Under the pieces are notes generated by a model. The model made no database searches, was not told the DNA's origin, and saw only the letters and a list, made by a program, of their open reading frames with translations. This document shows positions 382-46,306 of a stretch of DNA of 64,000 nt, piece after piece. How positions within the stretch are numbered: position 1 is the stretch's first letter; the number at the start of each line of letters is the position of its first letter. A program made the translations under genes and the position numbers. The DNA lies in the NCBI GenBank assembly GCA_029560465.1, contig JAKQKX010000016.1:1248-65247 (forward strand). The letters run 5' to 3'. The stretch is from Candidatus Omnitrophota bacterium (GTDB taxonomy: Bacteria; Omnitrophota; Gorgyraeia; Zapsychrales; JANLHA01).

Positions 382-3300
382 ATGAAAAGTAGCCCGCTTT
401 TTAAATTTTCCACCTGGACAGTTCTTTTTTCGTTTTTCTTTTCATTAATCGCCCCTCCGCGCAGTTCTGCGCAAGAATCATTTTCGCTTCCTGATCCCGG
501 AACGATGATCACCATTACCCCCGCTTTCGTACCCCCCATGTTAAAAGGAATGAAAGTGAATTTGGAAGATCCGTTTACCTTCGATTTCATTTTTGACAGC
601 GGGAATGCCAACCTGACCCCAGAAGAATTGAAAAGCGAGGCCAACAAATTAATTAAATATTTTTTGGCATCATTAACCATCCCCGAAGATGACCTGTGGG
701 TCAATTTATCGCCATATGAAAAAGATCGGGTCATTCCGAAAGAATTTGGCGTTACGGAGATGGGGCGAGATTTACTTGGACAGGATTATATTCTTAAACA
801 ATTGACCGCCTCATTGATTTATCCTGAGAAGGATTTAGGAAAAGAATTTTGGAATCGAGTTTTTTCAAAGGCCAGAGCGCTTTACGGCACAGAAGCCATC
901 CCGATTAATACCTTTAACAAAGTTTGGATCCTTCCAGATAAGGCCGTTGTTTATCAAAACCAAGACACAGTGTTTGTCCTGGAAAGCCATTTAAAGGTTA
1001 TGCTGGAAGGAGATTATCTTTCCCTTAAAGAAAATTTAAGCAATAAAAAATTGGGGATCGATAAATTAGACAAAGAGGCTATTCAGAAGCTGAATGATGT
1101 CTCCGCAGCCATTATTAAAGAGGTGGTTATTCCAGAAATTGAAAAAGAAGTTAATAGCGGGCAAAACTTCGCCAAATTGCGGCAGGTGTACCATTCTCTC
1201 ATTTTGGCGAAGTGGTATAAACAGAATCTCAAGGCCAGCATTTTGAATTGGAAATATTCCGATAAAAGAAAAGTGGTGGGGGTCGATGTCGAAGATAAAT
1301 CGATCAATGAAAAGATTTATGAGCAGTATTTGGAAGCCTTTAAGAAAGGCGTTTTTAATTATATTAAGGAGGATTACGACGTTGCCAAGCAGGAAGTTAT
1401 TCCCAGAAAATATTTTTCTGGCGGCATAGAACTTAAAGTCCCTCTTGAGGTGGAAACAGATCCGGCGATGCTGGCTAAAGCAACGTCGACTGGAAAATTA
1501 AACTGGATTAAAGGAATCTATCGTCAGCCCAGAGTTTCCGCCAGATTTGTCAACGAGTATATAAATCAAAAGTTTCGTGAAGGGGCCGTAAAGGAAGGGC
1601 AGCCGATAGACCTGCCTAACGGCAAACAGGCACAAGTCTATACCGTTAAGGGATTGTTAAAATCAACGGGGCAATTTGGGCACATTGGATTAGGAGCAAA
1701 AGAGAGAAAAGGAGCAGAGGTTGTTTATACGGATGGCGGATTACCGGTCATTTATCTGGACAGTGATTATGCTGAAAATTTAACAGTCAGGGATAACGAA
1801 AAATTCAAGGTTGAGAGGTGGGAAGAGCAAAAGATTGCTTTGGGCCGGGAAAGAGGTTTAAGCCGTCCACTGACCGCGCAAGAGATGCGGCAGTGGATCA
1901 AAAACAACACGACACAAGCCGCTGAATTGTTACAGGAATGGGATAGCCAGGCGCCTTCTTTAGTGCCGTTATTTGAAAAAGCGGAAGCAAAGGGGCTGTT
2001 GCCTTCTGATGAAGAAATTGCTGAGACGTACACGAGAGAAGAAGATTTTAGGGATTTAAATTTGGCGGCTGGCCGTTGGGGCATAAGAAGCGCTTCTTCT
2101 CGGGGGATCATGCCACAACACGCAGCGTATACGGTAGAAGCTGGCGAGAGTTACGATGACATAGTCATAAAAGAGCTTGCAAAACAGAGTGGCGTATCCG
2201 TCGATGATTTGGAGGCGAATTTCGAACGGACTGTTTCTATGCTTGAAGAGAGCCTGGGAAAGACCGGTTTTTCCCAACCAAATGCCGATGTGGTCGCTAA
2301 AAAAATACACGAGATATTCGATCGTCTGATCAAGGTTTATCAGACAAAAACGCAGGAAGCGCCGGGACGGTTACGAATTGTAGATGCGAATACTGTGAAT
2401 GCTTTTGTGATTCGCAAGCGCGCGGATGTGTATTTTTACAAGGGGCTATACGAAGCCCTGTACGATATCTCGACGCGGATGAATGTCCCTCTCACGGAAG
2501 ATATGATTGCTTTTATCATAGCGCATGAGCTTTCCCACGCTTTACAACATACATCCCGTCAAGGCCTCGATATCCGTGACCTTAACGAGAAGGCCTCTCC
2601 ATATCTGATTCAAATGATAAAAAATGGTGAGTACGACGCCGATATGAGAGCCCTTGAATTAATGGATAAAGCCGGATATTCAGTATTCGGCGCGGTTGAC
2701 GCGATGACATTTTTAGAATTCATCACGGGAACTAGCCAGGCCGAAAATGTGTTGAGTTCCCACCCGTATGTGAGCCTCAGAAAACACAGGTTATCACAAA
2801 TTATTTTTGATCAGAAAACGAACGTTTTTACTAATGTCAAGGCTTCAAGGGTTCCTATGGTTGGCAATGGTCGCATAAGGAGCCAGGACGTTGATTTTAG
2901 ACATTTAATGGATAAAAGCGAAGAAGAATTGTTGGCCATGGCGCAGAATGCAGAAAGCCTGGTGGCTTTGGATGAGTTAACGGGGATGCTGGTTCTTCGC
3001 AAGCGTATGAATGCGTTGAAAGGTTTAGTGAGAGAGGACCAATTAAAAGCAGCGTTCTTGCGCGATGTTTATGTTCAGGCTGTGCTGGCGGCAACGGGAA
3101 GAACCTCGCAAGGGATTGATTACTCTGACATGAAAGGTGCGGCGGCCATATATGATTTTGGAAAAGAAACAACAACGGAAAACGTCCTTGAAAGAAATGC
3201 GCCGGCATTTGAAGATAATCCAGATGATGTTATAAAAAAGATAAACGAGTCGCTCAAAGATGACGCATCAAGAGAGGGTGTTGCCGCCAAGAATGTGTTG

Positions 3301-6300
3301 GAAGGGTTGATTTCTTCTGGCAACCGGAGAGTTTATGGCCTTACACAGAATGACTTTGATGGATTTTTACTTCCTTTCGAGGATGTTAAGGATATTATTC
3401 CAATATTTACAAAGAGAAAAGGGGGGCTTAGAGGTGTTTTTGTAAGCAGACAAGAAGGCGCGAGTGTTGATCAAACGTTTTTTGAGGACGCAATGCGAGA
3501 CCCCCAAAGACTTATTTCTGCATTTTTCTACGCGAATTATCTTGGCCAGGAACCATCTGTTGAATTTGGTATCCCCACGACGGAAATGCGCGTAAAGTTA
3601 CAAAGAAGAAAGAATGAAGTGTATTTTGAAAATCCTGCTTATCGGGATACCGGGTCAGCGGAGAATAGAAGACATCTTCAAAATATTGTCCTTCTTCATT
3701 ACGCATTGGCAAAAACCCGTTCCAATATATTTGATAAGTATTTAGATGTTTCATTCCCGGGGATCAAGAGGCTTTTGCAAGTACCTGTACCCGATGTTCG
3801 CCAGCTTTTTGACAGGTATGAGACGTTATTTTCTAAGAAGTATCCTCAACCAATAGCAACTCAATTGGCCGGAAAAAGACTTTATGATTATTTTGGTGTG
3901 AAATTAGAAGGTGCCGGGGATGCCCCCACCGGATTCATTAATGAGGTTTCAAATTTTAAAACACAGGCCAAATCCGAATATGCGGAAGAAGAGGCAGGCT
4001 TTGCAGATTATATGAAGAACAAGGTTGGGGAGTTTGTAGATAGCCATCCTTTAATAATTTTTATGCGAACGGCCATACAACAGTATCGAGATCGGTTGTC
4101 GGTTCGGGATATAGAAAAGTTTGAAGAAACATTGGATCAATTGCGGACAAAAAGATTTGAAAAAAACTATAATTCACATTTGGACAGACAAAATATATCA
4201 AATATTTTAACTAAGCTCGCAGTGGTTTATTCACAAGAACCGCGAAGAGAAGCGCATGTTTCCGCTGTGTTTGCAAATGAGACTAGCTTGGAGTATTACC
4301 TCAAGGAAGAAGAAATTTTATCATTTAAGTCATTGCTGGAATTGCCGGATTGGGCCGTGTCTGACTATTTAAACAGAAAAAGCTATAGTGCCAATAAATT
4401 GATTGAGAATGCGCTGAAACAAGGCACGCCTCTAAGCGAAATATTTGCGTTTATGGGAACCCGCCTTGCGTATGCCGATAGACGAGAAGTTTTCGATAGC
4501 TTATTTTTGGGATGGTTCTCCGAGAATTCCAGGTACTTGTTCGATTTCTTTAAAACAAAGCTTAACAATAATTCACAGGAAATAATCGTGTGGTTCCTTG
4601 GGATGTTTTCCAAAAAGGACGCCCTTGAATTAATTGATAAGTTTTCCAGGGGGCTTTTGTACGAGAGAGCCAAAGACGCCCGCACCAATGTCGATGAAGC
4701 CGCGGAATTAAGAAACCTGGCCATTGCCTTGCTTGAATATATTTACAGGCAGACATCAAAGATATTTCACGCCGATGAAGAATCCGCAAAAGTTTATTTG
4801 GACTTAATAAATGAACGTATTGAAGAATCTGGGAAATCGGGAGATCAAAATTATGTGCGAGAGGTGGTTTACAATGCGCTTATGGTCCTGAGCGCTTCGG
4901 TTGCTCTTAAAATAGAATTCAGTCAACCGGAAGAACCTTCTGAGGATGGAACACCAGATTTTAAGTCTCAAAAGACAAGTCTTTTTCAACGGCAGGAATC
5001 TTTGGGGCGGTGGGAGACTGATTATAATTCACAATTTGCGCTCCATAATTTTGGCTGGAATGATAGAAAAGCAGCTTCTCAATCTGTTTTTGTGAGCCGT
5101 TTAACCGATTTATCAGTTGATCAGCTTAAGAAACTTTTAAAACAGAGATTGCGATACGTGGCGTCGCGAGCGGATGTTGAGTATAGAGGCGAAGTGTTTT
5201 CTTTGTCCAGTTTAAATGATTTTTTTGCAAATTTAATCACTTTAATAATATTAAAAAAAACACGTAACCCAGGATGGGAGAACACTAAGGAAAGCTTAAA
5301 CAGGCTCGATGATTTGATGGGCATCAAGGTTTCCTATTCCCAATATGATAAAAAGACATTTGCTATCCATGCGAAAATGAATTTGAAGATAGACCAGGAT
5401 GAAATCAACACAATATCTTACGACGCGATTAAAGAGAATTTTGTCGGGACTACGATCCCCTCTCCAGAACTTGATTATGTGTGGGGAGCTTATGTGGCGG
5501 CAAATGATCTCCATGGTAATTTTCCGGAAATCGTCCCCTTGCTTCAAAATCCCAACGCTGCAAACGAAAGCATTTACAATCCGATTGTTTTTCTCGAAAG
5601 ACACAAATATGGCAGGAGGGTCTCCTATCGACAAATAGTTCAAAAATTTTTTATGGATTCATCCGTTTACTCGAAACTTTTTAATGCCTATTTGAAAGTA
5701 CAGGGGAAAGGATATGTATACGGTAAATTCAGATCATTGGAAGAACGGCTGGCCTGGATAGCAAGAGTGCTGCCGAACAAGTCGATCATAAAAGACAGCA
5801 TTATTAACCTGTGGGAGACCGATATTTTCCCGGAGATAATCGCTGATTTGCCAGTTTTGGTAAAGTTGGCTCGACAGGCTTCCAGTGAGGGAGAAGGTTT
5901 ACTGCGGGATATGTGGGCGATCCTGGGGGAGATGGACGATGATGTGGGCCGATTAAAAAGGTTAAACGAGCAGATTGATTTATCACCAAAAAAAATACAT
6001 CAATTGTTGGATTTCTATGAAACCGTTATCCCTTTAGCGCTGTCACCCCAAAAAATAGCTCGATATGGAGCAACGGCATATATGCTGTGGCGGTTATTGC
6101 CAGAAAACGCCGGATTAGGCCTCTCGGAAAACCTTGAAGCCTTAACGAAATTTATGCCGGAGCCAGGAGTATTAAGAGACGAATTGTTAATGCGGATCGC
6201 AAACAAGTATGCAATGCGTTTGCAAGACGTGCCTCTTGTTTCTGAGAAATTGTATTCCAATAATTTGTTGTCACGAAGCAGGGACTTAAGAACAGAAGAC

Positions 6301-9237
6301 TTCGTTTCCGAGACCCTGTTACATCTGTTCGGTGGAGCAAAAACGGAAGACAGGAGAGATATTTTGTTGTGGGTCGTGGGCGCGCAGAGCAAGCCACTCT
6401 TCATAAGCGACATCGAGAATAAATATAATATTGATTTTACGACTTTGCCTAGCGACATAAAATTGCTTCCGGCAACAATGCGAGAAAAATTTATTGAAGG
6501 GTTCATGCTTGGTGATAATGGAGTCCTGGATCCTCAAAATGATAACGATAGACTCGTTATGTCCGACTTCTTGGAGCGCCTGTTTTTATACCTGTTCCCC
6601 GAGGGAACCAAGGGCATAGGCAACGAGGAGAGGCTGCTTATATCCAAAGTTTTTCTTATTGTTATGAAATCTTTCCCTCCATATCGAAGAGTACAGGTTA
6701 TAAAGGCCTTGGCGGCCCTACGCGTAAAGGCTGATTTTGAAAAAACAAGCACGGGGGAACGGCTGGCCGTCCTTCTGGGAGTGTTAGGGCCCGTTGGGAT
6801 AAAGGTTGCACAGTATTTATCTGAGAACGAAACGCTGGTTTCAGATGAGAAAATGCGCTCGAGCTTAGGCGCACTACGACACAAAGCCCCGGAGATTACA
6901 AAGATTTCAGCGTTTTCCGTGTTGGAGAAGGAAGTCCCCTTGAGTGAAGTATTGGTGCGAGAAATGGGCGAGCCCGTTGGCGTCGCCTCAATCAAACAGG
7001 TTAATCGCGGGGGATGGCTGGATATCGAGACATTAGCTGAATTGGTGATTCGTAAAGCTCGAGGGGCGGATATGAATGAAGTCAGAGAAAAAATGCGCGC
7101 TTATCAGGCTAAGGAAATTCCATTTTCTGAAGCGGTCGCGTTTGTGGTCGAAAAAGCTCAGCAATATAAAATAAATTTGGAGGAGGCCACGGCCTCGGTT
7201 GTTTTTAAAATTCGACGCCCTAATATGGAAACGACCCTCGGCACAGATTTTGCGGCCCTTGATGATGTGGCTCGGGAATTGCAAGGCACGGCTCATAAAG
7301 GCGAAGCCATTAATATCAGCGATTTGGTTCAAACCGTTAAAGAATGGGTGATCCTCGAGATGCTTTTTAGTAATGAGGCAAAGTTTGCCAAGATGCTTAT
7401 GGACCTGGATTATACGTGGTCTGAAAATTTTCAACAGCAGGCAGGGGTAACAATCGTTCATCCCAAAATATTGTATGTGACGGATTCGCTCATTGTTGAG
7501 GAAGAAATTCAAGGAGCCCCCGTATTAAGTCTTGCGCCGAAGCAACAGCCAATAACGATGGAAGACGTAATGGGCGCGGGATATTCCCGTTCCGAGGCTG
7601 AGCGGGTTTTTGTCGCATTGTCCTCAGTTGACCCTCGGCAAGCGCACCTCACGTTAAGTCTTAAGAAAGCCGGATTCCCAGAGGAAGAATTAAGCAACCT
7701 GACTAAAAGAATGCTTGCTTATGACTACGGGAAACTACGCGAGTTATTACGTCAAATGTTGTTGCACCAAATATTTGTTGATGGTGTTTTTCACGCCGAC
7801 CTTCATCAGGGAAACATCCTCATCACGCCTGATGGCAGGCTTGTGATGATAGATTGCGGCAATGTCGGCAGATTAAACAGGGCTCAAATTGAAGGAGCAA
7901 AAATTTTATTAAAAGGATTGTCGCTCAGAGAAAAAGATCTCATAAAACAAGGAGTCGATGAGATTTTCTTAAATGCCACGTATGAAGACGGAGTTCAGCC
8001 GAAAACTCCCAACATAACGTTAGCCGATATACAGGAAATATTGGGTAAAGGATATGACCTGAAAATGACAATGAACTTGATTAGCGTGAGAGCCGTTCAG
8101 GGAGCAAAGAATACCCCCGGCGGGAAGGATTTCTCGACGTTTTTAAAAGCCTTCACCCAAGCCATGTATCTATTTCCCACAGATCTAATAAACGGTATGG
8201 CGACACTACAGGCAATCGCTCAATATATTTCGATGAGCGAGGAGGATGCGATACGTGCGGCTCAAGAGCAAGCAAAGTATTTTGTCGTGCAGGAGGTAGA
8301 CACGGCTGAGGGAGAAGCCGAAGCTCAAGGAGATATATTACAGATAGCGGAAAGGATTTTTTATAAAAAAACAGAGCGGTCTTTCTTACGTTCGGTATGG
8401 CGACCCATGGTTTTTCGTATGCTGGCAGCTCCTATAAAAAGAGCGACCGCCAAAGCCCCGTCTATAGGAAGCAATGTGATGTCACTTGTTAGGGTGCAGG
8501 GCCGGCAAATTATAGAAGAAAATATTAATGAATTTTTAAAAAGACAGAATTCCGAAATTGGGGATGTAGTGAAGGACATGATATCCGTTCCATTTGCAGA
8601 GAAGTTTGTGACCTCTTATGTGGAGCGTGGCATGAAAGAAAGTCGAGGAGGAAAATTCTTAGCCCCCATCGCGATGCCTTTGTTGAAAGGCGTACTATTC
8701 TTAGTCCGGCCGTTGACGAGGATATATGTTGAGGCTGCCAAAGAATGGGTTGATACCACGGGGAAACAGTATATCGCAAGCATTGCCCCGCACATGACGA
8801 TAAGAGAAGGGATTGATCTTTTATCACAGGTGTTTGTGGACGATTTTTCGAGTATAAAAAAGAAATTTGATGAAGGACGAACCAATGGTGAATCCGTCCC
8901 CCTGGCCACGGAGCCGTTATCAGATATCCGAGTTAGGGAGGACATGCACGGAGGTTCTCAATTAGGCAATGAGAAAACTCTGTTTGCAACCGAAACAAGT
9001 TCTTCGGTTCAACAAAATCCAGGCGGTATTGATTTTAATCTCGATTTGTTGGAGCTTGAAATTCATGGGCAGGAGAGTGATTTTAATTTGCCCAATGTTA
9101 ATCAGAATTTCGACCACATTCAAATAGATGACGGTCTTTTGCCGGTGATTATTAATATAACCCCGATCACGACAACGCTCCCTATCATTTTAGGCACGGC
9201 TGAGAGCGAAAAACAGCAATTGACCAGTGTTCAATAA
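382..9237 (+). CDS. Very large (2951 aa) secreted/surface multidomain protein with an internal M48-type zinc metallopeptidase module and an ABC1/UbiB-type atypical kinase module
   Basis: Uninterrupted 8.8-kb ORF. N-terminal hydrophobic signal-like segment (WTVLFSFFFSLIAPPRSSA|QE). HEXXH (IIAHELSHALQH, nt ~2521-2550) is followed ~35 aa later by EYDADMRALEL (EXXAD), the hallmark pair of M48/HtpX-type peptidases. Further on, LGPVGIKVAQYLS (nt ~6781) ... VVFKIRRP ... FHADLHQGNILITPDGRLVMIDCGNVGRL (nt ~7795) matches ABC1/UbiB kinase motifs (LGPTFIKLGQ / FHADPHPGN...DFG). The N-terminal ~320 aa and C-terminal ~60 aa are shared with the 766-aa protein at 44123-46306. Confidence 0.85.
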   Translation: MKSSPLFKFSTWTVLFSFFFSLIAPPRSSAQESFSLPDPGTMITITPAFVPPMLKGMKVNLEDPFTFDFIFDSGNANLTPEELKSEANKLIKYFLASLTIPEDDLWVNLSPYEKDRVIPKEFGVTEMGRDLLGQDYILKQLTASLIYPEKDLGKEFWNRVFSKARALYGTEAIPINTFNKVWILPDKAVVYQNQDTVFVLESHLKVMLEGDYLSLKENLSNKKLGIDKLDKEAIQKLNDVSAAIIKEVVIPEIEKEVNSGQNFAKLRQVYHSLILAKWYKQNLKASILNWKYSDKRKVVGVDVEDKSINEKIYEQYLEAFKKGVFNYIKEDYDVAKQEVIPRKYFSGGIELKVPLEVETDPAMLAKATSTGKLNWIKGIYRQPRVSARFVNEYINQKFREGAVKEGQPIDLPNGKQAQVYTVKGLLKSTGQFGHIGLGAKERKGAEVVYTDGGLPVIYLDSDYAENLTVRDNEKFKVERWEEQKIALGRERGLSRPLTAQEMRQWIKNNTTQAAELLQEWDSQAPSLVPLFEKAEAKGLLPSDEEIAETYTREEDFRDLNLAAGRWGIRSASSRGIMPQHAAYTVEAGESYDDIVIKELAKQSGVSVDDLEANFERTVSMLEESLGKTGFSQPNADVVAKKIHEIFDRLIKVYQTKTQEAPGRLRIVDANTVNAFVIRKRADVYFYKGLYEALYDISTRMNVPLTEDMIAFIIAHELSHALQHTSRQGLDIRDLNEKASPYLIQMIKNGEYDADMRALELMDKAGYSVFGAVDAMTFLEFITGTSQAENVLSSHPYVSLRKHRLSQIIFDQKTNVFTNVKASRVPMVGNGRIRSQDVDFRHLMDKSEEELLAMAQNAESLVALDELTGMLVLRKRMNALKGLVREDQLKAAFLRDVYVQAVLAATGRTSQGIDYSDMKGAAAIYDFGKETTTENVLERNAPAFEDNPDDVIKKINESLKDDASREGVAAKNVLEGLISSGNRRVYGLTQNDFDGFLLPFEDVKDIIPIFTKRKGGLRGVFVSRQEGASVDQTFFEDAMRDPQRLISAFFYANYLGQEPSVEFGIPTTEMRVKLQRRKNEVYFENPAYRDTGSAENRRHLQNIVLLHYALAKTRSNIFDKYLDVSFPGIKRLLQVPVPDVRQLFDRYETLFSKKYPQPIATQLAGKRLYDYFGVKLEGAGDAPTGFINEVSNFKTQAKSEYAEEEAGFADYMKNKVGEFVDSHPLIIFMRTAIQQYRDRLSVRDIEKFEETLDQLRTKRFEKNYNSHLDRQNISNILTKLAVVYSQEPRREAHVSAVFANETSLEYYLKEEEILSFKSLLELPDWAVSDYLNRKSYSANKLIENALKQGTPLSEIFAFMGTRLAYADRREVFDSLFLGWFSENSRYLFDFFKTKLNNNSQEIIVWFLGMFSKKDALELIDKFSRGLLYERAKDARTNVDEAAELRNLAIALLEYIYRQTSKIFHADEESAKVYLDLINERIEESGKSGDQNYVREVVYNALMVLSASVALKIEFSQPEEPSEDGTPDFKSQKTSLFQRQESLGRWETDYNSQFALHNFGWNDRKAASQSVFVSRLTDLSVDQLKKLLKQRLRYVASRADVEYRGEVFSLSSLNDFFANLITLIILKKTRNPGWENTKESLNRLDDLMGIKVSYSQYDKKTFAIHAKMNLKIDQDEINTISYDAIKENFVGTTIPSPELDYVWGAYVAANDLHGNFPEIVPLLQNPNAANESIYNPIVFLERHKYGRRVSYRQIVQKFFMDSSVYSKLFNAYLKVQGKGYVYGKFRSLEERLAWIARVLPNKSIIKDSIINLWETDIFPEIIADLPVLVKLARQASSEGEGLLRDMWAILGEMDDDVGRLKRLNEQIDLSPKKIHQLLDFYETVIPLALSPQKIARYGATAYMLWRLLPENAGLGLSENLEALTKFMPEPGVLRDELLMRIANKYAMRLQDVPLVSEKLYSNNLLSRSRDLRTEDFVSETLLHLFGGAKTEDRRDILLWVVGAQSKPLFISDIENKYNIDFTTLPSDIKLLPATMREKFIEGFMLGDNGVLDPQNDNDRLVMSDFLERLFLYLFPEGTKGIGNEERLLISKVFLIVMKSFPPYRRVQVIKALAALRVKADFEKTSTGERLAVLLGVLGPVGIKVAQYLSENETLVSDEKMRSSLGALRHKAPEITKISAFSVLEKEVPLSEVLVREMGEPVGVASIKQVNRGGWLDIETLAELVIRKARGADMNEVREKMRAYQAKEIPFSEAVAFVVEKAQQYKINLEEATASVVFKIRRPNMETTLGTDFAALDDVARELQGTAHKGEAINISDLVQTVKEWVILEMLFSNEAKFAKMLMDLDYTWSENFQQQAGVTIVHPKILYVTDSLIVEEEIQGAPVLSLAPKQQPITMEDVMGAGYSRSEAERVFVALSSVDPRQAHLTLSLKKAGFPEEELSNLTKRMLAYDYGKLRELLRQMLLHQIFVDGVFHADLHQGNILITPDGRLVMIDCGNVGRLNRAQIEGAKILLKGLSLREKDLIKQGVDEIFLNATYEDGVQPKTPNITLADIQEILGKGYDLKMTMNLISVRAVQGAKNTPGGKDFSTFLKAFTQAMYLFPTDLINGMATLQAIAQYISMSEEDAIRAAQEQAKYFVVQEVDTAEGEAEAQGDILQIAERIFYKKTERSFLRSVWRPMVFRMLAAPIKRATAKAPSIGSNVMSLVRVQGRQIIEENINEFLKRQNSEIGDVVKDMISVPFAEKFVTSYVERGMKESRGGKFLAPIAMPLLKGVLFLVRPLTRIYVEAAKEWVDTTGKQYIASIAPHMTIREGIDLLSQVFVDDFSSIKKKFDEGRTNGESVPLATEPLSDIRVREDMHGGSQLGNEKTLFATETSSSVQQNPGGIDFNLDLLELEIHGQESDFNLPNVNQNFDHIQIDDGLLPVIINITPITTTLPIILGTAESEKQQLTSVQ

Positions 9238-9583: not shown

Positions 9584-11173
9584 GTGAAACACAAGAATCC
9601 TTCCAACCCGTTTCGTTTAATCCGCGGGGTGCTTTTCACCCTGACATGGCTTTTCGTTGCCCCAGCCATAAGTTGTGCCACCTTGTCCAATGTTGCCGAT
9701 CACGCGGCCCCTCACAAGTTGTTCAGGCTGACCATGAGCGCGGAAAACCTCCCCGTGGTTAAAGAGCCGGTCAAGCTCCTTACTATTGAGCAAATGGAAG
9801 AGATCAGGACATTGTTTAAAAATGAACGGTTTGGGGCCTTGAGCGTCATGATGGACAAATATCAGTCCGCATCCGAAGCCGATCCAGCGGATGAATTTTT
9901 GATCAGTGCCTTCCTTGATGTTTTTGGGGCGCCCTCCCGTGATTACGAGCGGTTGCTTTTAAAGTGGAAAGAAACGTTTCCCTATAACTATCAGCCGTAT
10001 TTGGCCTTGGCGCAATATTATTACAGTCAGGGATGGGAAAACCGCGGGTCCCAATTCGCCACGGAAACAACAACCGAGCAGTTTCAAAAGATGGAGGACA
10101 GTTTTCAGAAAGCGGAAGAGAACCTCGAGAAAGCTTTAAAGATGAAGCCCAAATTGATGCCCGCGTATTGCATGTTTATCAGTATGTATAATGCCGCAAG
10201 ACCAGAACAGGAGGAGAATGTTTTTATTGAGCGGGCTTTAGAGCTATTCCCCCATTCTTTCCTGGTCTGGTCGAGATGCATCGTAGCCAAAAAACCCCGC
10301 TGGGGCGGCAGTTATGATCAGATGCAGGCTATCGCCAAAGCAGCGGAACAATTTAATAAGGCCAATCCTAACCTGACGAAGTTATATGGTTTTATATACG
10401 CGGATCAAGCGTGGTATCTGAAACGGGCCAAGCAGTATAGTAAAGCGATCGGCCTGTTGCGGGAGGCTTTAGCTTTCGGAGAGCGTTCAAGCCTTCATCA
10501 GGAAATTGCCAAGATTTATTACTATAATTTAGAAGATTACCCACGGGCTTTGGAGGAATGCAATGAAGCGATACGGCTTGGCCCTGGCGCGGAATATTAT
10601 CTTCTTCGTTCCAAAATATATTATAAGCTGGAAAATTACGAGAAATCACTGAGTGACCTGGAAACGGCAAACCGTGTTAATCCGTTTTATGATGAGGTGA
10701 GAAAATGGGTTAAATGGGCTGGCCGGGACCTGATGCTTCAGGGGCATAAAAAATATAAAGCCCATCATGTGCGGGCGGCGATTGGTTTGTTTAATTTGTC
10801 CCTGAAATATAATGACCAAGATCCCGAGACATATCATTGGAGGGGGAAAGCGTTTTTTGACAAAGGCGACGCGGGTTCCGCGCTCAAAGATTTTGAGCGG
10901 GCGCTTGCCCTGAACCCGAGGGATTTTTATTCCGTCAGCATGATCGATTATATCGCCAATTCAGAAGGGCAGTTTGATTTCAGTATCGGATATTGGAGCC
11001 GGTTCCTGAAGCTTGAACCGAACCATTCCGGGGGCTATCTGAACAGGGCCAGGGTTTATTATTATAAAGGGGACTTCGTGAGCTGTTTGCAAGACTTAAA
11101 TCAAGGCTGCCGTTTGGGGAACCAGGAAGCGTGCTCCCGGATTAATAATATCAAAACCAGGGGCAAATTTTAA
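9584..11173 (+). CDS. TPR-repeat protein with N-terminal signal peptide
   Basis: 529-aa ORF. Hydrophobic N-terminus (FTLTWLFVAPAISCA). Repeated TPR-like helices (AIRLGPGAEYYLLRSKIYYKLENYEKSLSDLETANRVNP; ALNPRDFYSVSMIDY...). Confidence 0.7.
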   Translation: MKHKNPSNPFRLIRGVLFTLTWLFVAPAISCATLSNVADHAAPHKLFRLTMSAENLPVVKEPVKLLTIEQMEEIRTLFKNERFGALSVMMDKYQSASEADPADEFLISAFLDVFGAPSRDYERLLLKWKETFPYNYQPYLALAQYYYSQGWENRGSQFATETTTEQFQKMEDSFQKAEENLEKALKMKPKLMPAYCMFISMYNAARPEQEENVFIERALELFPHSFLVWSRCIVAKKPRWGGSYDQMQAIAKAAEQFNKANPNLTKLYGFIYADQAWYLKRAKQYSKAIGLLREALAFGERSSLHQEIAKIYYYNLEDYPRALEECNEAIRLGPGAEYYLLRSKIYYKLENYEKSLSDLETANRVNPFYDEVRKWVKWAGRDLMLQGHKKYKAHHVRAAIGLFNLSLKYNDQDPETYHWRGKAFFDKGDAGSALKDFERALALNPRDFYSVSMIDYIANSEGQFDFSIGYWSRFLKLEPNHSGGYLNRARVYYYKGDFVSCLQDLNQGCRLGNQEACSRINNIKTRGKF

Positions 11174-13211: not shown

Positions 13212-14474
13212 ATGACCAAAATAACGGGAGTTGATATGCCAAGAAAACGGAATGTCGGGATGGGATTAAGTATTTCCCAAGGGGACGAGTTGAAGATATT
13301 ACGCCAGATTGTCGATATAACGTCTTCCGAGATGGACTTGGCGCGCACGCTGAAAGAGGTCGTTGGCATCGTGAATGAGGCGACCCGGGCGGATTCGGTT
13401 TTTATCTACCTTTTTGACGAGCGGAAAGAAAACCTGACGTTGATGGCCTCTAAATTGCCGCATAAAAGAATGCTGGGGCATCTTGTCTTGAAGGTCGGGG
13501 AAGGGATTACCGGCTGGGTAGCCAAGGAAAACAAGCCGGTGGCCATCAATGAGAACGCTTATCAGGACGCGCGGTTCAAGAATTTTGACGTCTTGCCGGA
13601 AGACCAATACGAAGCGTTTCTGTCCGTCCCCATCATTTATAAGGGCAAGGCGATCGGGGTTATTAATGTCCAGCATAAAAAGCCGCACGATTACAGTTCC
13701 CAGACCGTCACCCTGATCTGCACGATCGCCAAACAGGTCGGAGGGGTGATTGAACACGCGGTCCTTTATGAACATATCAAGCTGAAAGCGAAGCAGTTTG
13801 ACAGCCTGGTCAAGGTGAGCCAGTCCATCACATCGGAGAATTACCTGGATGAAATTTTAAACCTGATCGTGGTGGTGACGGCGGAAATGCTGAACTCCAA
13901 GATTTGCTCGATCCTTCTTCTGGATGACAGGAAACAGAAGGAGCTGGTGATCAAGGCCACCCAGAGCTTGAGCGAGGAATACAAGCAGAAACCGAACCTC
14001 AACGTGGACCGCAGCCTTTTGGGGGAGGTGATCAAACGCAAAAAGCCGTTGATGTTTCAGGATGTCCGCCAGGAACAGAAATACTTTTACCGGGATTTGG
14101 CGGTGAAAGAGAACCTGACTTCGATGATCGCGGTCCCCATGATTGTCAAAGACACCGCGATCGGAGTTATAAATGTGTATACCAAAGAGCCGCATGTGTT
14201 TTCGGACGAGGAAACAGGGGTCCTTCAGATGGTGGCCAACCAGGCGGCGGTCGCGGTGGAAAACACAAAATTGATGCAGGAGGCCCTCAAGGCCAAAGAA
14301 GCGTTGGAAACGCGCAAGCTCGTTGAGCGGGCTAAGGGTATTTTGATGAAGCTGAATAATTTGTCCGAACAGGCCGCGTACCGGTTGATCCATAAAAAGA
14401 GCATGGACACCTGCCGCTCCATGAAAGAGATCGCCGAGTCCGTGATCCTGATGGATGAATTGAGCTCCTCGTGA
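13212..14474 (+). CDS. GAF-GAF-ANTAR RNA-binding antitermination regulator
   Basis: 420 aa. Two GAF-like regions (…LKVGEGITGWVAKENKPVAINENAYQD… and …AVPMIVKDTAIGVINVYTKEPHVFSDEE…). C-terminal ANTAR-like helix bundle (ALETRKLVERAKGILMKLNNLSEQAAYRLIHKKSMDTCRSMKEIAESV). Confidence 0.8.
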   Translation: MTKITGVDMPRKRNVGMGLSISQGDELKILRQIVDITSSEMDLARTLKEVVGIVNEATRADSVFIYLFDERKENLTLMASKLPHKRMLGHLVLKVGEGITGWVAKENKPVAINENAYQDARFKNFDVLPEDQYEAFLSVPIIYKGKAIGVINVQHKKPHDYSSQTVTLICTIAKQVGGVIEHAVLYEHIKLKAKQFDSLVKVSQSITSENYLDEILNLIVVVTAEMLNSKICSILLLDDRKQKELVIKATQSLSEEYKQKPNLNVDRSLLGEVIKRKKPLMFQDVRQEQKYFYRDLAVKENLTSMIAVPMIVKDTAIGVINVYTKEPHVFSDEETGVLQMVANQAAVAVENTKLMQEALKAKEALETRKLVERAKGILMKLNNLSEQAAYRLIHKKSMDTCRSMKEIAESVILMDELSSS

Positions 14475-14598
14475 AGGTGTTTTAGCGGAGGCGCGCTAAA
14501 GCCTGGGATCCGGGTGCGGGACAGGCAGAAGGCGGCTTTTTTAGGGCGTTATTTTGGATTTTCAAAATTCGTAAATGCCGTGGATAAAAAAAACACCT

Positions 14599-14632
14599 TG
14601 ACAAAAAGCTCCGGAAATATTATATTTTAACC
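14599..14632 (+). promoter_or_regulatory. Sigma70-like promoter (TTGACA-17nt-TATATT) for the outer-membrane-protein/amtB operon leader
   Basis: ccTTGACAaaaagctccggaaatatTATATTtt. The same 14-mer CCTTGACAAAAAGC recurs at the carA promoter (31051). Confidence 0.55.
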
Positions 14633-14666
14633 AGACCATTGACGGTTTATCATAACGGGCAAGGAA

Positions 14667-14700
14667 GTCCGGATTCTTTATAAGATTCCGGGCTTTTTTA
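14667..14700 (+). terminator. Leader intrinsic terminator T1 (gtccgga...tccgggc + UUUUUU)
   Basis: Stem-loop followed by a T6 run, ~35 nt downstream of the predicted -10. Candidate attenuator of the ANTAR-controlled leader. Confidence 0.5.
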
Positions 14701-14725
14701 TTGTTAGTGCTTTTGGGCGTTGACG

Positions 14726-14768
14726 TCCTCTTGATCGCAGGGATTCTGCGGAAGAGGGCTTTTTTTTT
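14726..14768 (+). terminator. Leader intrinsic terminator T2 (tcctctt-[cgcag ggatt ctgcg]-g-aagaggg + U9)
   Basis: 7-bp outer stem enclosing a 5-bp inner hairpin, followed by nine T. Lies ~110 nt upstream of the OMP gene start. Confidence 0.55.
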
Positions 14769-14877
14769 GATATTTGATAAAGGGCATGGGGGTCCATAAC
14801 GAGCAAAGACAGCTTGCGGGTCCGTTGGCGGGGCAGAAAAATGGTGCAATAGTGAATAAGAAAATTAAGGAGAAACG

Positions 14878-15645
14878 ATGAAGTTAAAAAGTGAAATTCT
14901 GATCAGCGTTTGTATGACAGCCCTCTTTTGTGGACTTCCGGCTAAGGCGGAAAGCAAAACCATTTTTGGGGATTATCTTAAGGAGAACGCCGTTGAGGTC
15001 GAATTGAGCGCCCGTACCGATTTTTATTCCAAATATATCTGGCGCGGCTTTCGCCTTGATGATGACTATGTTCTTCAGCCAGGGGTTTCGGTAGGTGGGT
15101 ATGGATTCGAGGTTAATGTCTGGGGCAGTTTTGACACAGCCCAGAATGACGCTTTGGGGTCGGATGAAGTAGACACGACGGTGAGTTACAGCCGTGATTT
15201 TGACGCAGTATCCCTTTCCGTGGGGCACGTTTATTATGATTTTCCTTCCGCGGGAACGTTTAGCAAGGAGTTTTTCTTAGGAGTGGGTTACGACACCCTG
15301 CTGGCCCCGTCTTTCACCTGGTATCACGATTATGGCCGAGAAAGCCAGGGGGGAGGCCATGGGGATTATATGGTGCTCGCGTTGGGGCACACCCTGACGC
15401 TTAATGAGGAATACGGGATTACTTTGGATTTGTCCGGGCATGTTGGGTATAACCAACGCCTGTTTATTAAAGGAAAAGGCGGCGATGTTGCGTTGGGGGC
15501 GGGGCTGACAGTCCCTTTGACAGAGACCCTTTCCTTATCTCCCAGTTTGAATTACAGCCTTCCATACGGAGACATGGAAGATTCTTCCGACGGTAATCAG
15601 GATGATGAATTTTATTGGGGTGCCGGGGTGAGTTGCCGTTTCTAA
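14878..15645 (+). CDS. Outer-membrane beta-barrel protein (porin-like), first gene of the amt operon
   Basis: 255 aa. Signal peptide, alternating aromatic/glycine-rich beta-strand pattern, C-terminal ...GAGVSCRF ending in Phe. RBS aaggagaaacg-ATG. Confidence 0.7.
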   Translation: MKLKSEILISVCMTALFCGLPAKAESKTIFGDYLKENAVEVELSARTDFYSKYIWRGFRLDDDYVLQPGVSVGGYGFEVNVWGSFDTAQNDALGSDEVDTTVSYSRDFDAVSLSVGHVYYDFPSAGTFSKEFFLGVGYDTLLAPSFTWYHDYGRESQGGGHGDYMVLALGHTLTLNEEYGITLDLSGHVGYNQRLFIKGKGGDVALGAGLTVPLTETLSLSPSLNYSLPYGDMEDSSDGNQDDEFYWGAGVSCRF

Positions 15646-15694
15646 TGTTCAGTGATTTTGTCCGGGGTCAGTCCCGGATCGAAAGGAGTTCGAT

Positions 15695-17083
15695 ATGTTT
15701 AGAAAAATTTTAAAAATTCTCCCTGCGCTCGCGGTTATCCTGGGGGTCGGGGTGATGCTTGGCGCGGGCTTGGGGATGGCGGAAGAGCCGACTGTGGCTG
15801 GTAACGCTGCGGCCATCGAGGAAAAAAGCGTGGCGATGGATACGGTGTGGACGCTTATCGCCGGGATGCTGGTGATGTTCATGCAGGCGGGGTTCGCGAT
15901 GGTGGAAACTGGTTTCACCCGGGCGAAGAATGCCTGCAACATTATGATGAAAAACTTGCTTGATTTCACGGTCGGGGCGGTGATTTATTGGGCTGTCGGT
16001 TTTGGGATTATGTTCGGGGCCGGAAACTTGTTTTTCGGGACCAGCGGCTTTTTCCTGGCTGATACCGGAAGCACGTTCGCCTCTCTGGACTGGAGTCTGG
16101 TCCCCTTGGCGTGTAAATATTTCTTTCAAATGGTTTTTGCCGCGACGGCGGCGACCATTGTTTCCGGGGCCATGGCGGAACGCACCAAGTTTTCGGCGTA
16201 TCTGGTGTACAGCATGGTGATCAGCGCGTTGATTTATCCGGTCGTGGGCCACTGGATCTGGGGTGGCGGGTGGCTGGCTGAAATCGGGATGTGGGATTTT
16301 GCCGGGTCAACGGTTGTGCATTCCACGGGGGCCTGGATGGCGCTGATCGGCGCGATTTTCCTCGGGCCTCGGTTAGGGAAATACCGCCCGGATGGGTCTT
16401 CCAACGCGATCCCCGGCCATAATATCCCATTGGCCACGTTAGGGGTTTTTATCCTCTGGTTCGGGTGGTACGGGTTTAATCCCGGAAGCACGATGGCGGC
16501 GGTCCCAGGCATCGCTCATATCGCCATGACGACGACGATTGCTGCGGCGGTCGGGGTTAACGCTGCGATGGTGACATCATGGGTGATGTTTTCCAAACCG
16601 GATATTTCCATGGCGTTAAACGGCGGGCTGGCGGGCCTGGTGGCGATCACGGCGGGATGCGCCTTTGTGTCTCCCGGGAGCGCGGCTTTGATCGGACTGG
16701 TGGCCGGCGTTCTGGTCGTCCTATCGGTTGTCACTTTTGATAAGGTTTTTCATATCGATGATCCGGTGGGGGCGGTGTCGGTGCACGGGGTTTGCGGTGC
16801 CTGGGGCACGCTGGCTGTGGGTCTTTTCGCGCAGGACATTTTTTCTCCAGGGACAACCGGAAACGGGTTGTTGTTCGGCGGAGGTATCAAGTTGCTGATG
16901 TCCCAGCTGGCTGGCGTGGGCTCGGTCATGCTCTGGTGTTTTATCTGCGGGGTTGTCCTTTTCTCAGCCATTAAAGCGACCATCGGGTTACGGGTGAGCA
17001 AAGAGGAGGAGTTGCGGGGTCTGGATATTGATGAACATGGCATGGAGGCTTACTCAGGATTCCAGATTTTCACGACGGAATAA
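15695..17083 (+). CDS. amtB: Ammonium transporter (Amt family)
   Basis: 462 aa. Signal peptide plus 11 TM segments. Amt signatures (DFAGGTVVHSTGAW-like: DFAGSTVVHSTGAWMALIGAIFLGPRLGKY; GFNPGS; C-terminal GLRVSKEEELRGLDIDEHGMEAY). Confidence 0.92.
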   Translation: MFRKILKILPALAVILGVGVMLGAGLGMAEEPTVAGNAAAIEEKSVAMDTVWTLIAGMLVMFMQAGFAMVETGFTRAKNACNIMMKNLLDFTVGAVIYWAVGFGIMFGAGNLFFGTSGFFLADTGSTFASLDWSLVPLACKYFFQMVFAATAATIVSGAMAERTKFSAYLVYSMVISALIYPVVGHWIWGGGWLAEIGMWDFAGSTVVHSTGAWMALIGAIFLGPRLGKYRPDGSSNAIPGHNIPLATLGVFILWFGWYGFNPGSTMAAVPGIAHIAMTTTIAAAVGVNAAMVTSWVMFSKPDISMALNGGLAGLVAITAGCAFVSPGSAALIGLVAGVLVVLSVVTFDKVFHIDDPVGAVSVHGVCGAWGTLAVGLFAQDIFSPGTTGNGLLFGGGIKLLMSQLAGVGSVMLWCFICGVVLFSAIKATIGLRVSKEEELRGLDIDEHGMEAYSGFQIFTTE

Positions 17084-21498: not shown

Positions 21499-21505
21499 AT
21501 CTATT

Positions 21506-44122: not shown

Positions 44123-46306
44123 ATGCGAAAATCAATTCCAAAATATCTGTATCGTCTTATCGTAACTGTAGTTGTGGGAATCTTTTTTGCCACTCAAGTC
44201 TCAACTTCAGCGGGTTATGCCCAGATTCCCTCACCCTCAAATTCCAAAGCTTTGCAAAACCTGCCGCCCGCAGGTTCGCAAGTGGGTTTAAGCCAGAAGT
44301 TTTTCCCGGCCAACTTGCGTGGCCTCAAGACTTATCCTGGAAATCCGCTGCAGTTTGATTTTGTTATTGATACCGGTGATGACAACCTCTCCGGCCCGGT
44401 TTTTGAGGAGGAAGCGAAGAAATTGATTAAGTATTTTCTCGCCGTTTTAACTGTTCCCGAAGACGAATTGTGGGTGAACCTTTCGCCGTATGAAAAAGAC
44501 CGCATTATCCCGGAAGGCCTGAGCGTAACGGAACTCGGAGTGGATATGCTAGCCCAAGACTATCTTTTAAAACAGTTCACAGCTTCGTTGACCTATCCGG
44601 AAGAAAAATTGGGCGCGGAATTTTGGCAGAGAATATACGCGAAGGCCAAGGAAGAGTACGGTACGGATAACATCCCGCTCAATACGTTCAACAAGGTTTG
44701 GATCGTGCCGGACAAGGCAGGGGTTTATGAATACAAAGACAGTGTTTTTGTCATCGAACGGCATTTTAAAGTCATGCTGGAGAATGATTACCTGGCGCTG
44801 AAGGAGAATCTGGGGAGGAAAGACGCGGGGGCCGATGAGCAATCAAAAATAGTAGCAAATCAGGTGAATAATATGTCGGGAAAGATTGTCAAAGAGATTA
44901 TTCTGCCGGCGATCGAACAGGAAGTCAATGAGGGCAAGAATTTCGCGCAGTTGCGGCAGATTTATAACGCAATGATTTTAGCGACCTGGTACAAGAAAAG
45001 GTTAAATGCGGGTTTCCTGGGGCAGGTGTATGTGAATAAGAATAAGATCAAAGGCGTTGATACGGATGACCATGCCGCCAAAGAGAAGCTTTACGCGCAG
45101 TACCTGGAGGCGTTTAAAAAAGGCGTTTACAATTATATTAAGGAAGACCATGACGCGGCCAGCCAAAAAGCCATTCCGCGAAAATATTTTTCCGGCGGGC
45201 TAGGTGCTGGAGTGGTGACAACAGAGAAGCTGCGGATTCTCCGCGGCGACCCGGCTCGTTTACCCAAATCGGTATCATCCGCCGTGATGCTGCCGGAATC
45301 AAAGCAGGGGAAGGACCACAAGGTGACGATTCAGTTAATAGAAAGCGCGACAAACGGAAGGCAGGGGTCTCCGGTGTCGTTACCATCACTACAGCTAGCC
45401 GGCACAGTGGACAGAAAAGGGATTTTTTCTCCGGAAGAGGCGGCTCGGGCCGGCTTTCTTCCCGAGGATGATTATAGTGCCCTGGTCAGTTCCCCTATAT
45501 TCGTCTCCGGTGGAAAGTTTGTCAAAAGCGCACTGATCCTTTGCACAGGACTTGTTACCGCGTACTATTCTTATTTAAATGAAATTGAGATAGTCCAGCG
45601 TATAGCGGGAATTTTACTCGCCGGGGGCGGTCTTTTGGGGGTTCTGAGCGCCATTAAGGACAACGTCTCGATATGGACAAGCCAGTTTTCTTATGAAAGA
45701 GGAATACGGGAAGAATATAGGCAGTTAGTTCATTACAATCTGGATGTCGTTCAGAAATTGCGGGACCGTCTTCCAGTAACGAGGATGGCGACCCTGGAGC
45801 AGGATTTGGCATTGTTGAGAGATGCGATCGCATTTAGAAATCAGGGATATGATTTCGCAGTGCTTATCCAGCCGGGGGAGTGGGCAGCAGTTGAGCGATC
45901 AGAGACACGGTGGGAAGACGATCCTGATACTTATAGTTTGGAAGGCGGGCAGCCACAAAAGTTGGTGACGCACACATGGACAGAAGAGGCCTGGGTTGAG
46001 GAAAGGATTATAATCGTTCAAGGAGAACGTCTTTTTGACAGGAGTTCTTCTCCGATTCAGGAGGATGGCCGTTTAACGCAAGCCAATGACAAGAATGTTG
46101 GAGGTATTAATCTTGATGCTGAATTATTGAATTTGCAAATCAAACGCGACGGAGCTGGCGTGCCCTTGCCTTTACCGCAGCAACCGATCCAGAATATGAA
46201 AATAGACGGTTTCCTGCCGTTGATTATCAATATTGAACCGGTTAGTATTCCGCAACTGTTGGGAATTTTGTCGGATAGGAAGAAAAAGGAAGACGTCTTT
46301 TATTAA
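44123..46306 (+). CDS. Secreted/membrane protein paralogous to the N- and C-terminal modules of the giant protein (382-9237) but lacking its enzymatic core
   Basis: Signal peptide MRKSIPKYLYRLIVTVVVGIFFATQVSTSAGYA. Residues ~90-400 align with giant-protein residues ~75-385 (LIKYFLAVLTVPEDELWVNLSPYEKDRIIPE... vs LIKYFLASLTIPEDDLWVNLSPYEKDRVIPK...; NTFNKVWIVPDKAGVY vs NTFNKVWILPDKAVVY). The C-terminal ~55 aa (…DGFLPLIINIEPVSIPQLLGIL) aligns with the giant C-terminus (…DGLLPVIINITPITTTLPIILG). The central region has two hydrophobic helices. Confidence 0.8.
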   Translation: MRKSIPKYLYRLIVTVVVGIFFATQVSTSAGYAQIPSPSNSKALQNLPPAGSQVGLSQKFFPANLRGLKTYPGNPLQFDFVIDTGDDNLSGPVFEEEAKKLIKYFLAVLTVPEDELWVNLSPYEKDRIIPEGLSVTELGVDMLAQDYLLKQFTASLTYPEEKLGAEFWQRIYAKAKEEYGTDNIPLNTFNKVWIVPDKAGVYEYKDSVFVIERHFKVMLENDYLALKENLGRKDAGADEQSKIVANQVNNMSGKIVKEIILPAIEQEVNEGKNFAQLRQIYNAMILATWYKKRLNAGFLGQVYVNKNKIKGVDTDDHAAKEKLYAQYLEAFKKGVYNYIKEDHDAASQKAIPRKYFSGGLGAGVVTTEKLRILRGDPARLPKSVSSAVMLPESKQGKDHKVTIQLIESATNGRQGSPVSLPSLQLAGTVDRKGIFSPEEAARAGFLPEDDYSALVSSPIFVSGGKFVKSALILCTGLVTAYYSYLNEIEIVQRIAGILLAGGGLLGVLSAIKDNVSIWTSQFSYERGIREEYRQLVHYNLDVVQKLRDRLPVTRMATLEQDLALLRDAIAFRNQGYDFAVLIQPGEWAAVERSETRWEDDPDTYSLEGGQPQKLVTHTWTEEAWVEERIIIVQGERLFDRSSSPIQEDGRLTQANDKNVGGINLDAELLNLQIKRDGAGVPLPLPQQPIQNMKIDGFLPLIINIEPVSIPQLLGILSDRKKKEDVFY

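Follow-up and report, generated by a model that had tools for sequence, protein, structure and literature searches.

A giant Omnitrophota protein with an M48 peptidase and an ABC1 kinase-like domain belongs to a large head-and-tail family built around differing, normally cytoplasmic enzymes

The Omnitrophota are widespread, uncultured and ultra-small bacteria that are thought to be predators or parasites, and large proteins are the most striking feature of their genomes. They are viewed as attached to the cells they exploit, and predator RNA has been reported to reach archaeal prey cells. Long Omnitrophota proteins in which several enzymes follow a signal peptide have been published (West-Roberts et al. 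2023, bioRxiv 10.1101/2023.11.21.568195; Seymour et al. 2023), and the same protein class appears as the 'multi-enzyme metabolic cluster' of Nielsen and Lui 2026 (bioRxiv 10.64898/2026.06.07.730766); in the available text of these reports, the long proteins contain HEAT, glycolytic, methyltransferase and kinase domains, 94% of them have signal peptides or transmembrane helices, and giant members are proposed to act on prey envelopes. Here we describe a gene at positions 382..9237 (+ strand) of a 64,000-nucleotide stretch of a Candidatus Omnitrophota bacterium (contig JAKQKX010000016.1, positions 1,248 to 65,247; this whole stretch is referred to as the window), whose 2951-residue product, hereafter the giant, carries an M48-type metallopeptidase domain and an ABC1/UbiB kinase-like domain behind a predicted signal peptide. 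A preliminary description of this DNA had likened the product to the multi-enzyme giants of uncultured lineages, which fits the published Omnitrophota work, and the giant is an uncharacterized member of a recognized phenomenon. The family to which it belongs, with a common head and tail around swappable cargo, is apparently undescribed and worth describing: 'ABC1', 'M48' and 'UbiB' occur zero times each in the available text of West-Roberts et al. 2023 (term search), and in the literature covered, which is incomplete, no description was found of the head and tail modules or of an Omnitrophota M48+ABC1 pair.

The gene is complete from its ATG start to its stop codon and lies in a single frame with no internal stop, as seen from the open reading frame (ORF) list, the translation and the collinear orthologs P0001-P0006 (P and L numbers are our handles for relatives and their loci). 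Its coordinates are exactly those listed earlier for one 8.8-kb ORF, and the mass of the product is 330-kDa; an open frame of 2951 codons is impossible by chance. A homology search with the giant returned 1743 matches including about seven full-length relatives, and the first-search counts given below come from the 120 relatives listed. Five orthologs (P0001, P0002, P0003, P0005 and P0006; 2949-2977 residues) align with the giant in one collinear BLASTP segment from query residue ~2 to ~2948 at 47-62% identity, and four of these five full-length proteins are named as from Omnitrophota genome bins. The orthologs are annotated in public databases, by automatic naming, as 'AarF/UbiB family protein' or 'M48 family metalloprotease'. 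Beyond these orthologs, a region of about 320 residues (query ~2-350) is common to all 120 listed matches at 46-70% identity and the last 70-85 query residues are common to most of them; the middle is common to very few.

This pattern is the basis of the head-and-tail ('bookend') family that we define here by a signal peptide, an N-module, a variable cargo, a C-module and a near absence of cysteine. The N-module of the giant occupies residues 31-352 (472..1437, +) and is the family-wide head, running from LPxPG through DLWVNLSPYEKDRIIP and LAQDYILKQ to RKYFSGG. An alignment of 36 diverse members (A1) has 50 invariant columns, and the invariant polar residues are N108, S110, E113, D135, K139, Q140, D211, E256, N258, R267 and Q268; because so many polar residues are invariant, the head is suggested to carry a putative binding or catalytic site and not to be a mere spacer. 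No Pfam or PDB match was found for the N-module. The C-module comprises residues 2866-2951 (8977..9234, +) and reads GGIDFNLDLLELEIHG...LLPVIINITPITTTLPIILG, followed by a short polar end. Its pattern, GGIDLNPxxLxLQxxGxGxxFxxPxDxxxxxxIxIxGFxPVIxxIxPxxNLPxxLG, is found in the giant at residues 2881-2938 and usually stops about 20-22 residues before the C-terminus; both tail motifs are present in 101 of the 120 proteins in a first search and in 96 of 120 in a second, and in the C-module alignment (A3) the residues G-G, G, P, I and P are invariant. Proteins with both modules span 549 to 5312 residues. A further motif at the extreme C-terminus, LSx[IV][RQ], was dropped as a defining feature, being present in 47 of 236 proteins.

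The signal peptide occupies residues 1-30 (382..471, +). The N-terminus of the giant is MKSSPLFKFSTWTVLFSFFFSLIAPPRSSA/QES (the slash marking the predicted signal-peptidase I site SSA/Q), in which two lysines (Lys2 and Lys8) are followed by a 16-residue hydrophobic stretch with the core FSTWTVLFSFFFSLIA, by helix-breaking prolines and by the site residues S-S-A at positions 28-30. The segment SSA/QESFSLPDPG thus places a small-x-small site followed by Gln about five residues before LPxPG, and A30 is invariant among the orthologs. The same arrangement recurs across the family: in 295 N-termini the net charge before the core has a mean of +3.4 and the core a mean Kyte-Doolittle value of 2.46 over 12 residues, and 269 of the 295 have a small-x-small site, mostly (A/S/V)-x-A then Q, at a median of five residues before LPxPG. 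The signal-like hydrophobic segment of the preliminary description resolves into the three parts of a Sec signal peptide, and the predicted N-terminus of the family is a textbook Sec/signal-peptidase I pattern. All residues after residue 30 are predicted to be translocated because a positively charged n-region (positive-inside rule) is combined with an AxA/Q site. The giant has no strongly hydrophobic internal helix, and between residues 25 and 1494 no 19-residue window has a Kyte-Doolittle mean above 1.5.

The near absence of cysteine is pronounced in the giant, which has one cysteine in 2951 residues against 1.45% in the 34 other ORFs of the window (binomial P 8e-18); cysteine amounts to 0.10% across 328 collected family proteins (563,367 residues), 236 of which carry both modules. 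Members with a glyceraldehyde-3-phosphate dehydrogenase (GAPDH) cargo keep the catalytic cysteine (SCTTN), at residues 600-603 in P0096 and residue 3783 in P0084. The former has four cysteines in 2016 residues, split equally between the signal peptide and the active site, and the latter seven in 4828 residues. Dispensable cysteines have been removed and catalytic ones kept, which is selective retention against a strong purge, and a loss of this kind is typical of proteins that exit the cytoplasm or must travel unfolded. The sole cysteine of the giant, residue 2492 (window 7855-7857), stands in the middle of the DFG-type motif (DCG) of the kinase-like domain; Arg (DRG) occupies this position in five orthologs, and F, W, A, V, L or M in distant paralogs.

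A profile of the head found 8454 proteins among 1.84 billion cluster representatives, 6791 of them at E up to 1e-30, and the head match starts within the first ~50 residues in all but one of the 150 best matches listed. A scan of one genome per prokaryotic species gave at least 598 family loci; among the best 80 of these, about 50 are titled Omnitrophota or Omnitrophica, about 27 'uncultured Planctomycetales' or 'Planctomycetales' and one 'bacterium'. The Planctomycetales titles (L009, L011, L015, L016 and others), like the Heimdallarchaeota bin to which the partial protein P0290 is attributed, are probably mislabels or mis-binned Omnitrophota contigs. With these titles read as mislabels, the family was seen in Omnitrophota genome bins alone. 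Genomes hold several copies, with up to five of the best 80 loci from one genome and at least nine family members from one hydrothermal-vent bin. The Pfam domains between head and tail include HEAT repeats, AAA_5 ATPases, methyltransferases, response-regulator receivers and HATPase_c; PP2C, Nudix, radical SAM, RelA/SpoT, macro and DnaJ domains; the glycolytic enzymes hexokinase, phosphofructokinase, aldolase, triose-phosphate isomerase, GAPDH, phosphoglycerate kinase and enolase; and phosphoglucomutase, UDP-glucose pyrophosphorylase and acyl-CoA enzymes. HEAT repeats occur as cargo more often than any other domain. Thousands of Omnitrophota proteins thus have the same head and tail around differing, normally cytoplasmic enzyme types.

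The first enzyme of the giant is an M48-type zinc metallopeptidase domain at residues 640-810 (2299..2811, +), assigned by Pfam PF01435 and by its motifs. Peptidase_M48 matched residues 640-739 with E 2.4e-11 and 44.3 bits against a cut-off of 20.3, and the isolated segment gave E 1e-13 and 52 bits; the match is good to the first half of the profile alone (positions 5-95 of 186). The zinc motif HELSH is at residues 715-719 (2524-2538, +), the third-ligand motif EYDAD at 750-754 (2629-2643, +), and the segment SSHPYVSLRKHR at 792-803 (+), which includes SHPYVSLRKHR at 793-803, supplies HPxxxxR, so that HExxH, the downstream Glu ligand and the HPxxxxR helix of the zinc site are all present. HExxH, E.xAD and HPxxxxR are conserved in 30 of 30 aligned homologs. 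The preliminary description had placed this pair of motifs at residues ~706 and ~748 and the Pfam domain at ~650-800; the motifs lie slightly downstream, and the domain match exceeds the curated threshold. The membrane-embedded M48 enzymes HtpX, Ste24 and Oma1 have transmembrane helices next to the catalytic domain; here no hydrophobic helix flanks it, and because a flanking transmembrane helix is missing, the M48 domain of the giant appears closer to the soluble M48 types than to HtpX or Ste24.

The second enzyme lies in a block conserved within the M48+ABC1 subfamily, residues 1780-2640 (5719..8301, +; BLASTP to subfamily members at 20-30% identity over query 1774-2640), and its ABC1/UbiB kinase-like core (Pfam PF03109) comprises residues ~2125-2520 (6754-7941, +). 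Pfam ABC1 matched residues 2259-2518 with E 5.1e-22 and 78.6 bits against a cut-off of 22.9, and at E up to 1 the giant as a whole matched M48, ABC1, APH and Pkinase alone. The core motifs are KVAQ at 2141-2144 (within LGPVGIKVAQ, 2135-2144), ASIKQVN at 2202-2208, VFKIRRP at 2274-2280, HADLHQGN at 2471-2478 and DCG at 2491-2493 (the last two within FHADLHQGN...IDCG, 2470-2493), which supply the ABC1 signature of KxGQ, Ala-rich loop, catalytic Lys, HxDxHxGN and DFG-type Asp; KVAQ is a KxGQ-type motif with G changed to A, and paralogs have KVGQ or KLGQ. K2141, Q2144, K2276 (the catalytic Lys), D2473, N2478 and D2491 are invariant among six orthologs. The near-complete ABC1/UbiB core that had been read from the translation, and expected at residues ~2090-2500, is thereby borne out. 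A profile of the orthologs against PDB sequences returned the ABC1-family entries 7cy2 and 5yjz with the motifs aligned, and kinases at E >0.5. NCBIfam UbiB gave E 1e-34 and 119.9 bits on the giant, and orthology to UbiB was rejected because the equivalogs TIGR01982 and NF003404 scored 119.9 against 487.55 bits and 75.2 against 667; on these profile scores the domain is assigned to the ABC1 family and not as a UbiB ortholog.

About 30 of the 120 listed relatives carry M48 and ABC1 together, in the same order, in proteins of 2.2-4.1 thousand residues whose cargo is 20-33% identical to the query, and a pattern of HxDxHxGN...DxG with an upstream HExxH was found in 22 proteins. The members with this cargo form a conserved M48+ABC1 subfamily, at least 22-30 proteins in size, and the pairing has been kept through deep divergence. 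Because the catalytic motifs are conserved despite the low identity, both enzymes of the giant are predicted to be very probably active. An ABC1 domain in an exported protein had been called unusual, which holds against textbook ABC1 biology but not within the phylum, where the pair occurs in at least 22-30 proteins and the frame around it in thousands.

Two further regions lie before and between these enzymes. The head extension domain at residues 353-565 (1438..2076, +), delimited by BLASTP segments that reach query residue 565, is present in P0008, P0009, P0011, P0012, P0015, P0017, P0018, P0028, P0033, P0036 and P0043 and is limited to a subset of the family, mostly with HEAT-repeat cargo; a segment search gave it no Pfam match. 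A spacer of about 970 residues (811-1779; 2812..5718, +) is conserved among the full-length orthologs alone and matched neither Pfam nor, by ortholog profile, any PDB sequence. Beyond M48 and ABC1, nothing was found by Pfam on six segments (E up to 5) or by the ortholog profile against PDB sequences. In an AlphaFold2 model of residues 1-580 from 36 sequences (mean predicted local distance difference test score, pLDDT, of 70), the head is an alpha/beta domain of two beta-hairpins and long helices with pLDDT ~50-85, and the 353-565 extension is the most confident part, with pLDDT ~85-96.

The preliminary description called the giant secreted and supposed an action on a host or prey envelope; we infer both from its sequence. 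Our preferred explanation, which we rate slightly above even, is that the giant is an exported modular enzyme carrier that is held at the surface or delivered, and that is directed at a membrane. Sec would carry the giant across the inner membrane and its signal peptide would be cut at SSA/Q. The head and tail would then act as a common handle, either for retention at the surface or for hand-over to a further export or delivery step, and the cargo would act on a membrane, M48 and UbiB-family enzymes being membrane-surface enzymes. M48 enzymes (HtpX, Ste24, Oma1, BepA and PGM48) work at membrane or lipid surfaces and cut membrane or envelope proteins, and the UbiB family (UbiB, COQ8 and ABC1K) comprises membrane-surface, ATP-dependent isoprenoid-lipid handlers or protein kinases. 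An M48 enzyme and three ABC1 kinases co-occur on cyanobacterial lipid droplets and plant plastoglobules, which hints independently at a functional link between the two. The site of action would most probably be the cytoplasm or membrane of an attached host or prey cell, because the ATP-site residues of the ABC1 domain are all kept and, to our knowledge, the bacterial periplasm and the medium contain no ATP. Action in or at a partner cell would fit the published view of these bacteria as attached predators or parasites, the proposal of prey envelopes as targets and the reported presence of predator RNA in archaeal prey.

Several points weigh against this explanation. Export is read from sequence statistics; about 2000 residues of the giant (353-640, 811-1779 and 2640-2865) are without a detectable family or solved relative; and no transporter or partner gene recurs upstream of 79 family loci (2 kb flank), where further family members alone recur. 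The head has no structural relative that points to a mechanism, a Foldseek search of it against the PDB returning nothing below E 0.26. The tail is not confidently folded and shows no predicted packing on the head; when the 727-residue family member of the window was modelled with 45 natural short relatives, the head reached pLDDT 60-90 and the tail stayed below 55 and unplaced. Finally, cargo that depends on ATP, NAD or S-adenosylmethionine (SAM) would be useless in a normal periplasm, which could equally mean continued contact with the cytoplasm of the producer.

A bolder version of this explanation, which we put forward tentatively, is that the head and tail mark the substrates of an undescribed, phylum-wide Omnitrophota route of export, display or delivery, and that the giant is an effector that attacks or remodels the membrane of a partner cell. 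If so, hundreds of cytoplasm-type enzymes, ATP-dependent ones included, would leave ultra-small cells into or onto the cells they live on. The target could be, for example, an archaeal isoprenoid-lipid membrane. The peptidase would serve to cleave membrane proteins, and the UbiB-type ATPase would draw on the ATP of the victim to extract or modify isoprenoid lipids.

The main rival explanation, which we consider unlikely, is that the giant is a self-directed housekeeping scaffold at the inner membrane or its periplasmic face in the producer, docked to the cell's own envelope by head and tail and combining quality control of membrane proteins, in the manner of HtpX and BepA, with a UbiB-like role in quinone or lipid homeostasis. 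Self-directed membrane housekeeping is the classical role of M48 and UbiB-family enzymes (HtpX, BepA, UbiB and COQ8), the co-localization of M48 and ABC1 on cyanobacterial lipid droplets agrees with it, and so does the ordinary chromosomal setting of the gene among nitrogen and nucleotide metabolism genes; the TPR gene downstream of the giant here and at L001 perhaps does as well, BepA being an M48-TPR fusion. An argument in the same direction is that the available text of Nielsen and Lui 2026 reads near half of the long Omnitrophota proteins as anchored in the inner membrane with their domains in the cytoplasm. Such a scaffold is hard to reconcile with the predicted translocation of everything after residue 30 and the lack of a strongly hydrophobic internal helix for a return, or with an ATP-dependent domain in a periplasm devoid of ATP; the UbiB equivalogs are missed widely (119.9 against 487.55 and 75.2 against 667 bits), and extreme cysteine loss would be unexpected on the cytoplasmic face.

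We hold it to be more doubtful still that the giant is a building block of a surface coat, with head and tail as assembly domains that polymerize or insert into a surface layer and with enzymes that are displayed and not injected, much as flagellin has conserved termini around a variable and sometimes enzymatic middle. The conserved termini around a hypervariable middle, in proteins of 549 to 5312 residues, and the many paralogs per genome, often in tandem, would suit a coat, as would a tail that did not fold alone in the model, which is expected if it requires a partner strand; for the cultured relative Velamenicoccus, the literature uses the term 'coated coccus' and proposes that a giant protein forms the coat. 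Against a coat, the head shows no likeness to a known S-layer, pilin or flagellin fold (one archaellum chain was returned by Foldseek at E 4.3), and cargo dependent on ATP, NAD or SAM would be inactive on an outer surface.

That the giant is an artifact, whether of chimeric assembly, of neighboring genes fused by sequencing error or of pseudogene decay, has a negligible probability and is rejected for practical purposes: the exact protein is on record nowhere else in the public assemblies looked up and its GC content at third codon positions (GC3) is 0.44 against 0.65-0.71 in housekeeping genes of the window, but same-length orthologs align with it end to end in five other lineages, at least 24 contigs, assembled independently from different samples, encode an identical P0006, and the catalytic motifs and both terminal modules are intact, so that the assembly join or frameshift named in the preliminary description as a possible refutation is in practice excluded. 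The overall GC content of the gene is 43%. The housekeeping genes compared are amt and those for glutamine synthetase, carB and pyrG, and intermediate GC3 values are seen in the minimal family member (0.52) and the TPR gene (0.55) described below. The low GC3 of the giant may reflect transfer among Omnitrophota, low expression or an amino-acid bias of the family.

Family members often lie side by side. A member of 751 residues is directly upstream of P0001 (L004 7526-9781 and 10001-18910), the 3722-residue M48+ABC1 paralog P0021 is directly downstream of P0003 (L006 402-9335 and 9877-19335), and at least 10 of 79 family loci have an upstream member that ends in a C-module. The window contains a second, minimal member of 727 residues (44123..46306, +), with a signal peptide, an N-module, about 250 residues that include two hydrophobic helices, and a C-module. 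Its N-module is 57% identical to that of the giant (tblastn, 44258-45202), and the member itself is nearly identical to P0225 (97%) and P0226 (86%), the second of which comes from an Omnitrophota genome bin. It has one cysteine and follows just after tRNA-Glu (43846-43919); just downstream of it, a HEAT-repeat protein of 899 residues with an N-terminal hydrophobic segment is encoded at 47120-49819 (+). The ORFs 44006-46306, 46382-47044 and 47120-49819 (+) are in one reading frame with stop codons between them, which looks coincidental and not like a broken gene because a complete C-module closes the first of them.

Directly downstream of the giant, the gene at 9584..11173 (+) encodes a TPR-repeat protein of 529 residues (Pfam TPR_2, E 1.8e-21). 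A TPR protein also follows P0006 (L001-L003; 196 residues at L001 18943-19533), and none follows P0001 or P0003. A functional link between the giant and the TPR protein is conceivable because BepA, an M48 peptidase of E. coli, joins its M48 domain to TPR repeats in one chain; as a partner of the giant the TPR protein is a possible candidate, weakly linked. The surroundings at 13212-23940 and 31080-38676 of the window are an ordinary context of nitrogen and nucleotide metabolism, with genes for a GAF-GAF-ANTAR regulator, two ammonium transporters, type III glutamine synthetase, NAD synthase, apolipoprotein N-acyltransferase, carbamoyl-phosphate synthase, PurF and CTP synthase. The apolipoprotein N-acyltransferase gene implies an outer envelope that bears lipoproteins.

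A head and tail shared by thousands of proteins of 0.5 to >5 thousand residues provide a concrete handle on protein export and function in the Omnitrophota. The family frame supplies a candidate substrate set for proteomes, with Gln31 as the predicted mature N-terminus of the giant; the small members are suited to structural and localization work; and the question of why glycolytic enzymes and kinases stand behind signal peptides becomes testable.

Among described systems, the nearest are the 'Archaeovorins' of West-Roberts et al. 2023 and the multi-enzyme class, which, as far as their available descriptions go, are from the same phylum, have a signal peptide before chained cytoplasm-type domains such as kinases, methyltransferases, glycolytic enzymes, HEAT repeats and peptidases, and are proposed to act at the interface with a host or prey. 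The giant likewise strings unrelated cytoplasm-type enzyme domains together after a signal peptide, and it too is from an Omnitrophota genome. In the same descriptions, the Archaeovorins and the proteins of Nielsen and Lui have at least 10,000 or at least 30,000 residues and usually many transmembrane helices, whereas the giant has 2951 residues and no strong transmembrane helix, and so lacks both the length of at least 10,000-30,000 residues and the multiple membrane anchors that characterize an Archaeovorin.

In its conserved terminal modules and swappable part, the family resembles secreted effectors and adhesins that pair a fixed delivery domain with changing cargo, such as TpsA/CdiA of two-partner secretion, the substrates of the type IX secretion system (T9SS) with their C-terminal domain, the mycobacterial PE/PPE proteins and the oomycete CRN proteins, with which it also shares many paralogs and the scarcity of cysteine seen in proteins that cross a narrow channel. 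Unlike these, it has both termini conserved and no cognate transporter linked in the upstream flanks of 79 loci, and the giant has no likeness in sequence or fold to their delivery domains. Pfam found no TPS, autotransporter or Por_Secre_tail domain in the giant and nothing in its terminal segments at E up to 5; PF18962 matched one of the 120 listed relatives.

The two enzymes have well-known counterparts. The M48 domain is like BepA/YfgC, LoiP, PGM48 and sll1280 in its HExxH motif, downstream Glu ligand, HPxxxxR helix and lack of transmembrane helices, and differs from them in being one domain of a multi-domain chain. BepA acts outside the cytoplasm, and PGM48/sll1280 shares its compartment with ABC1 kinases. 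The kinase-like domain is like UbiB, COQ8 and ABC1K in its Pfam score above cut-off and in having KVAQ, the Ala/Ser-rich ASIKQVN loop, the catalytic Lys, HxDxHxGN and DxG; it differs from them in an insert of about 60-70 residues between the Ala-rich loop and the catalytic Lys, lacks the C-terminal membrane helices of UbiB, and is part of a 330-kDa protein with a signal peptide at its start, whereas the known ABC1 members are on the cytoplasmic, matrix or stromal side. The fixed pairing of M48 with ABC1 in the Omnitrophota is an independent hint of cooperation, of the gene-fusion type, and bears on the ABC1K kinases and PGM48 that are found together on plastid and cyanobacterial lipid droplets.

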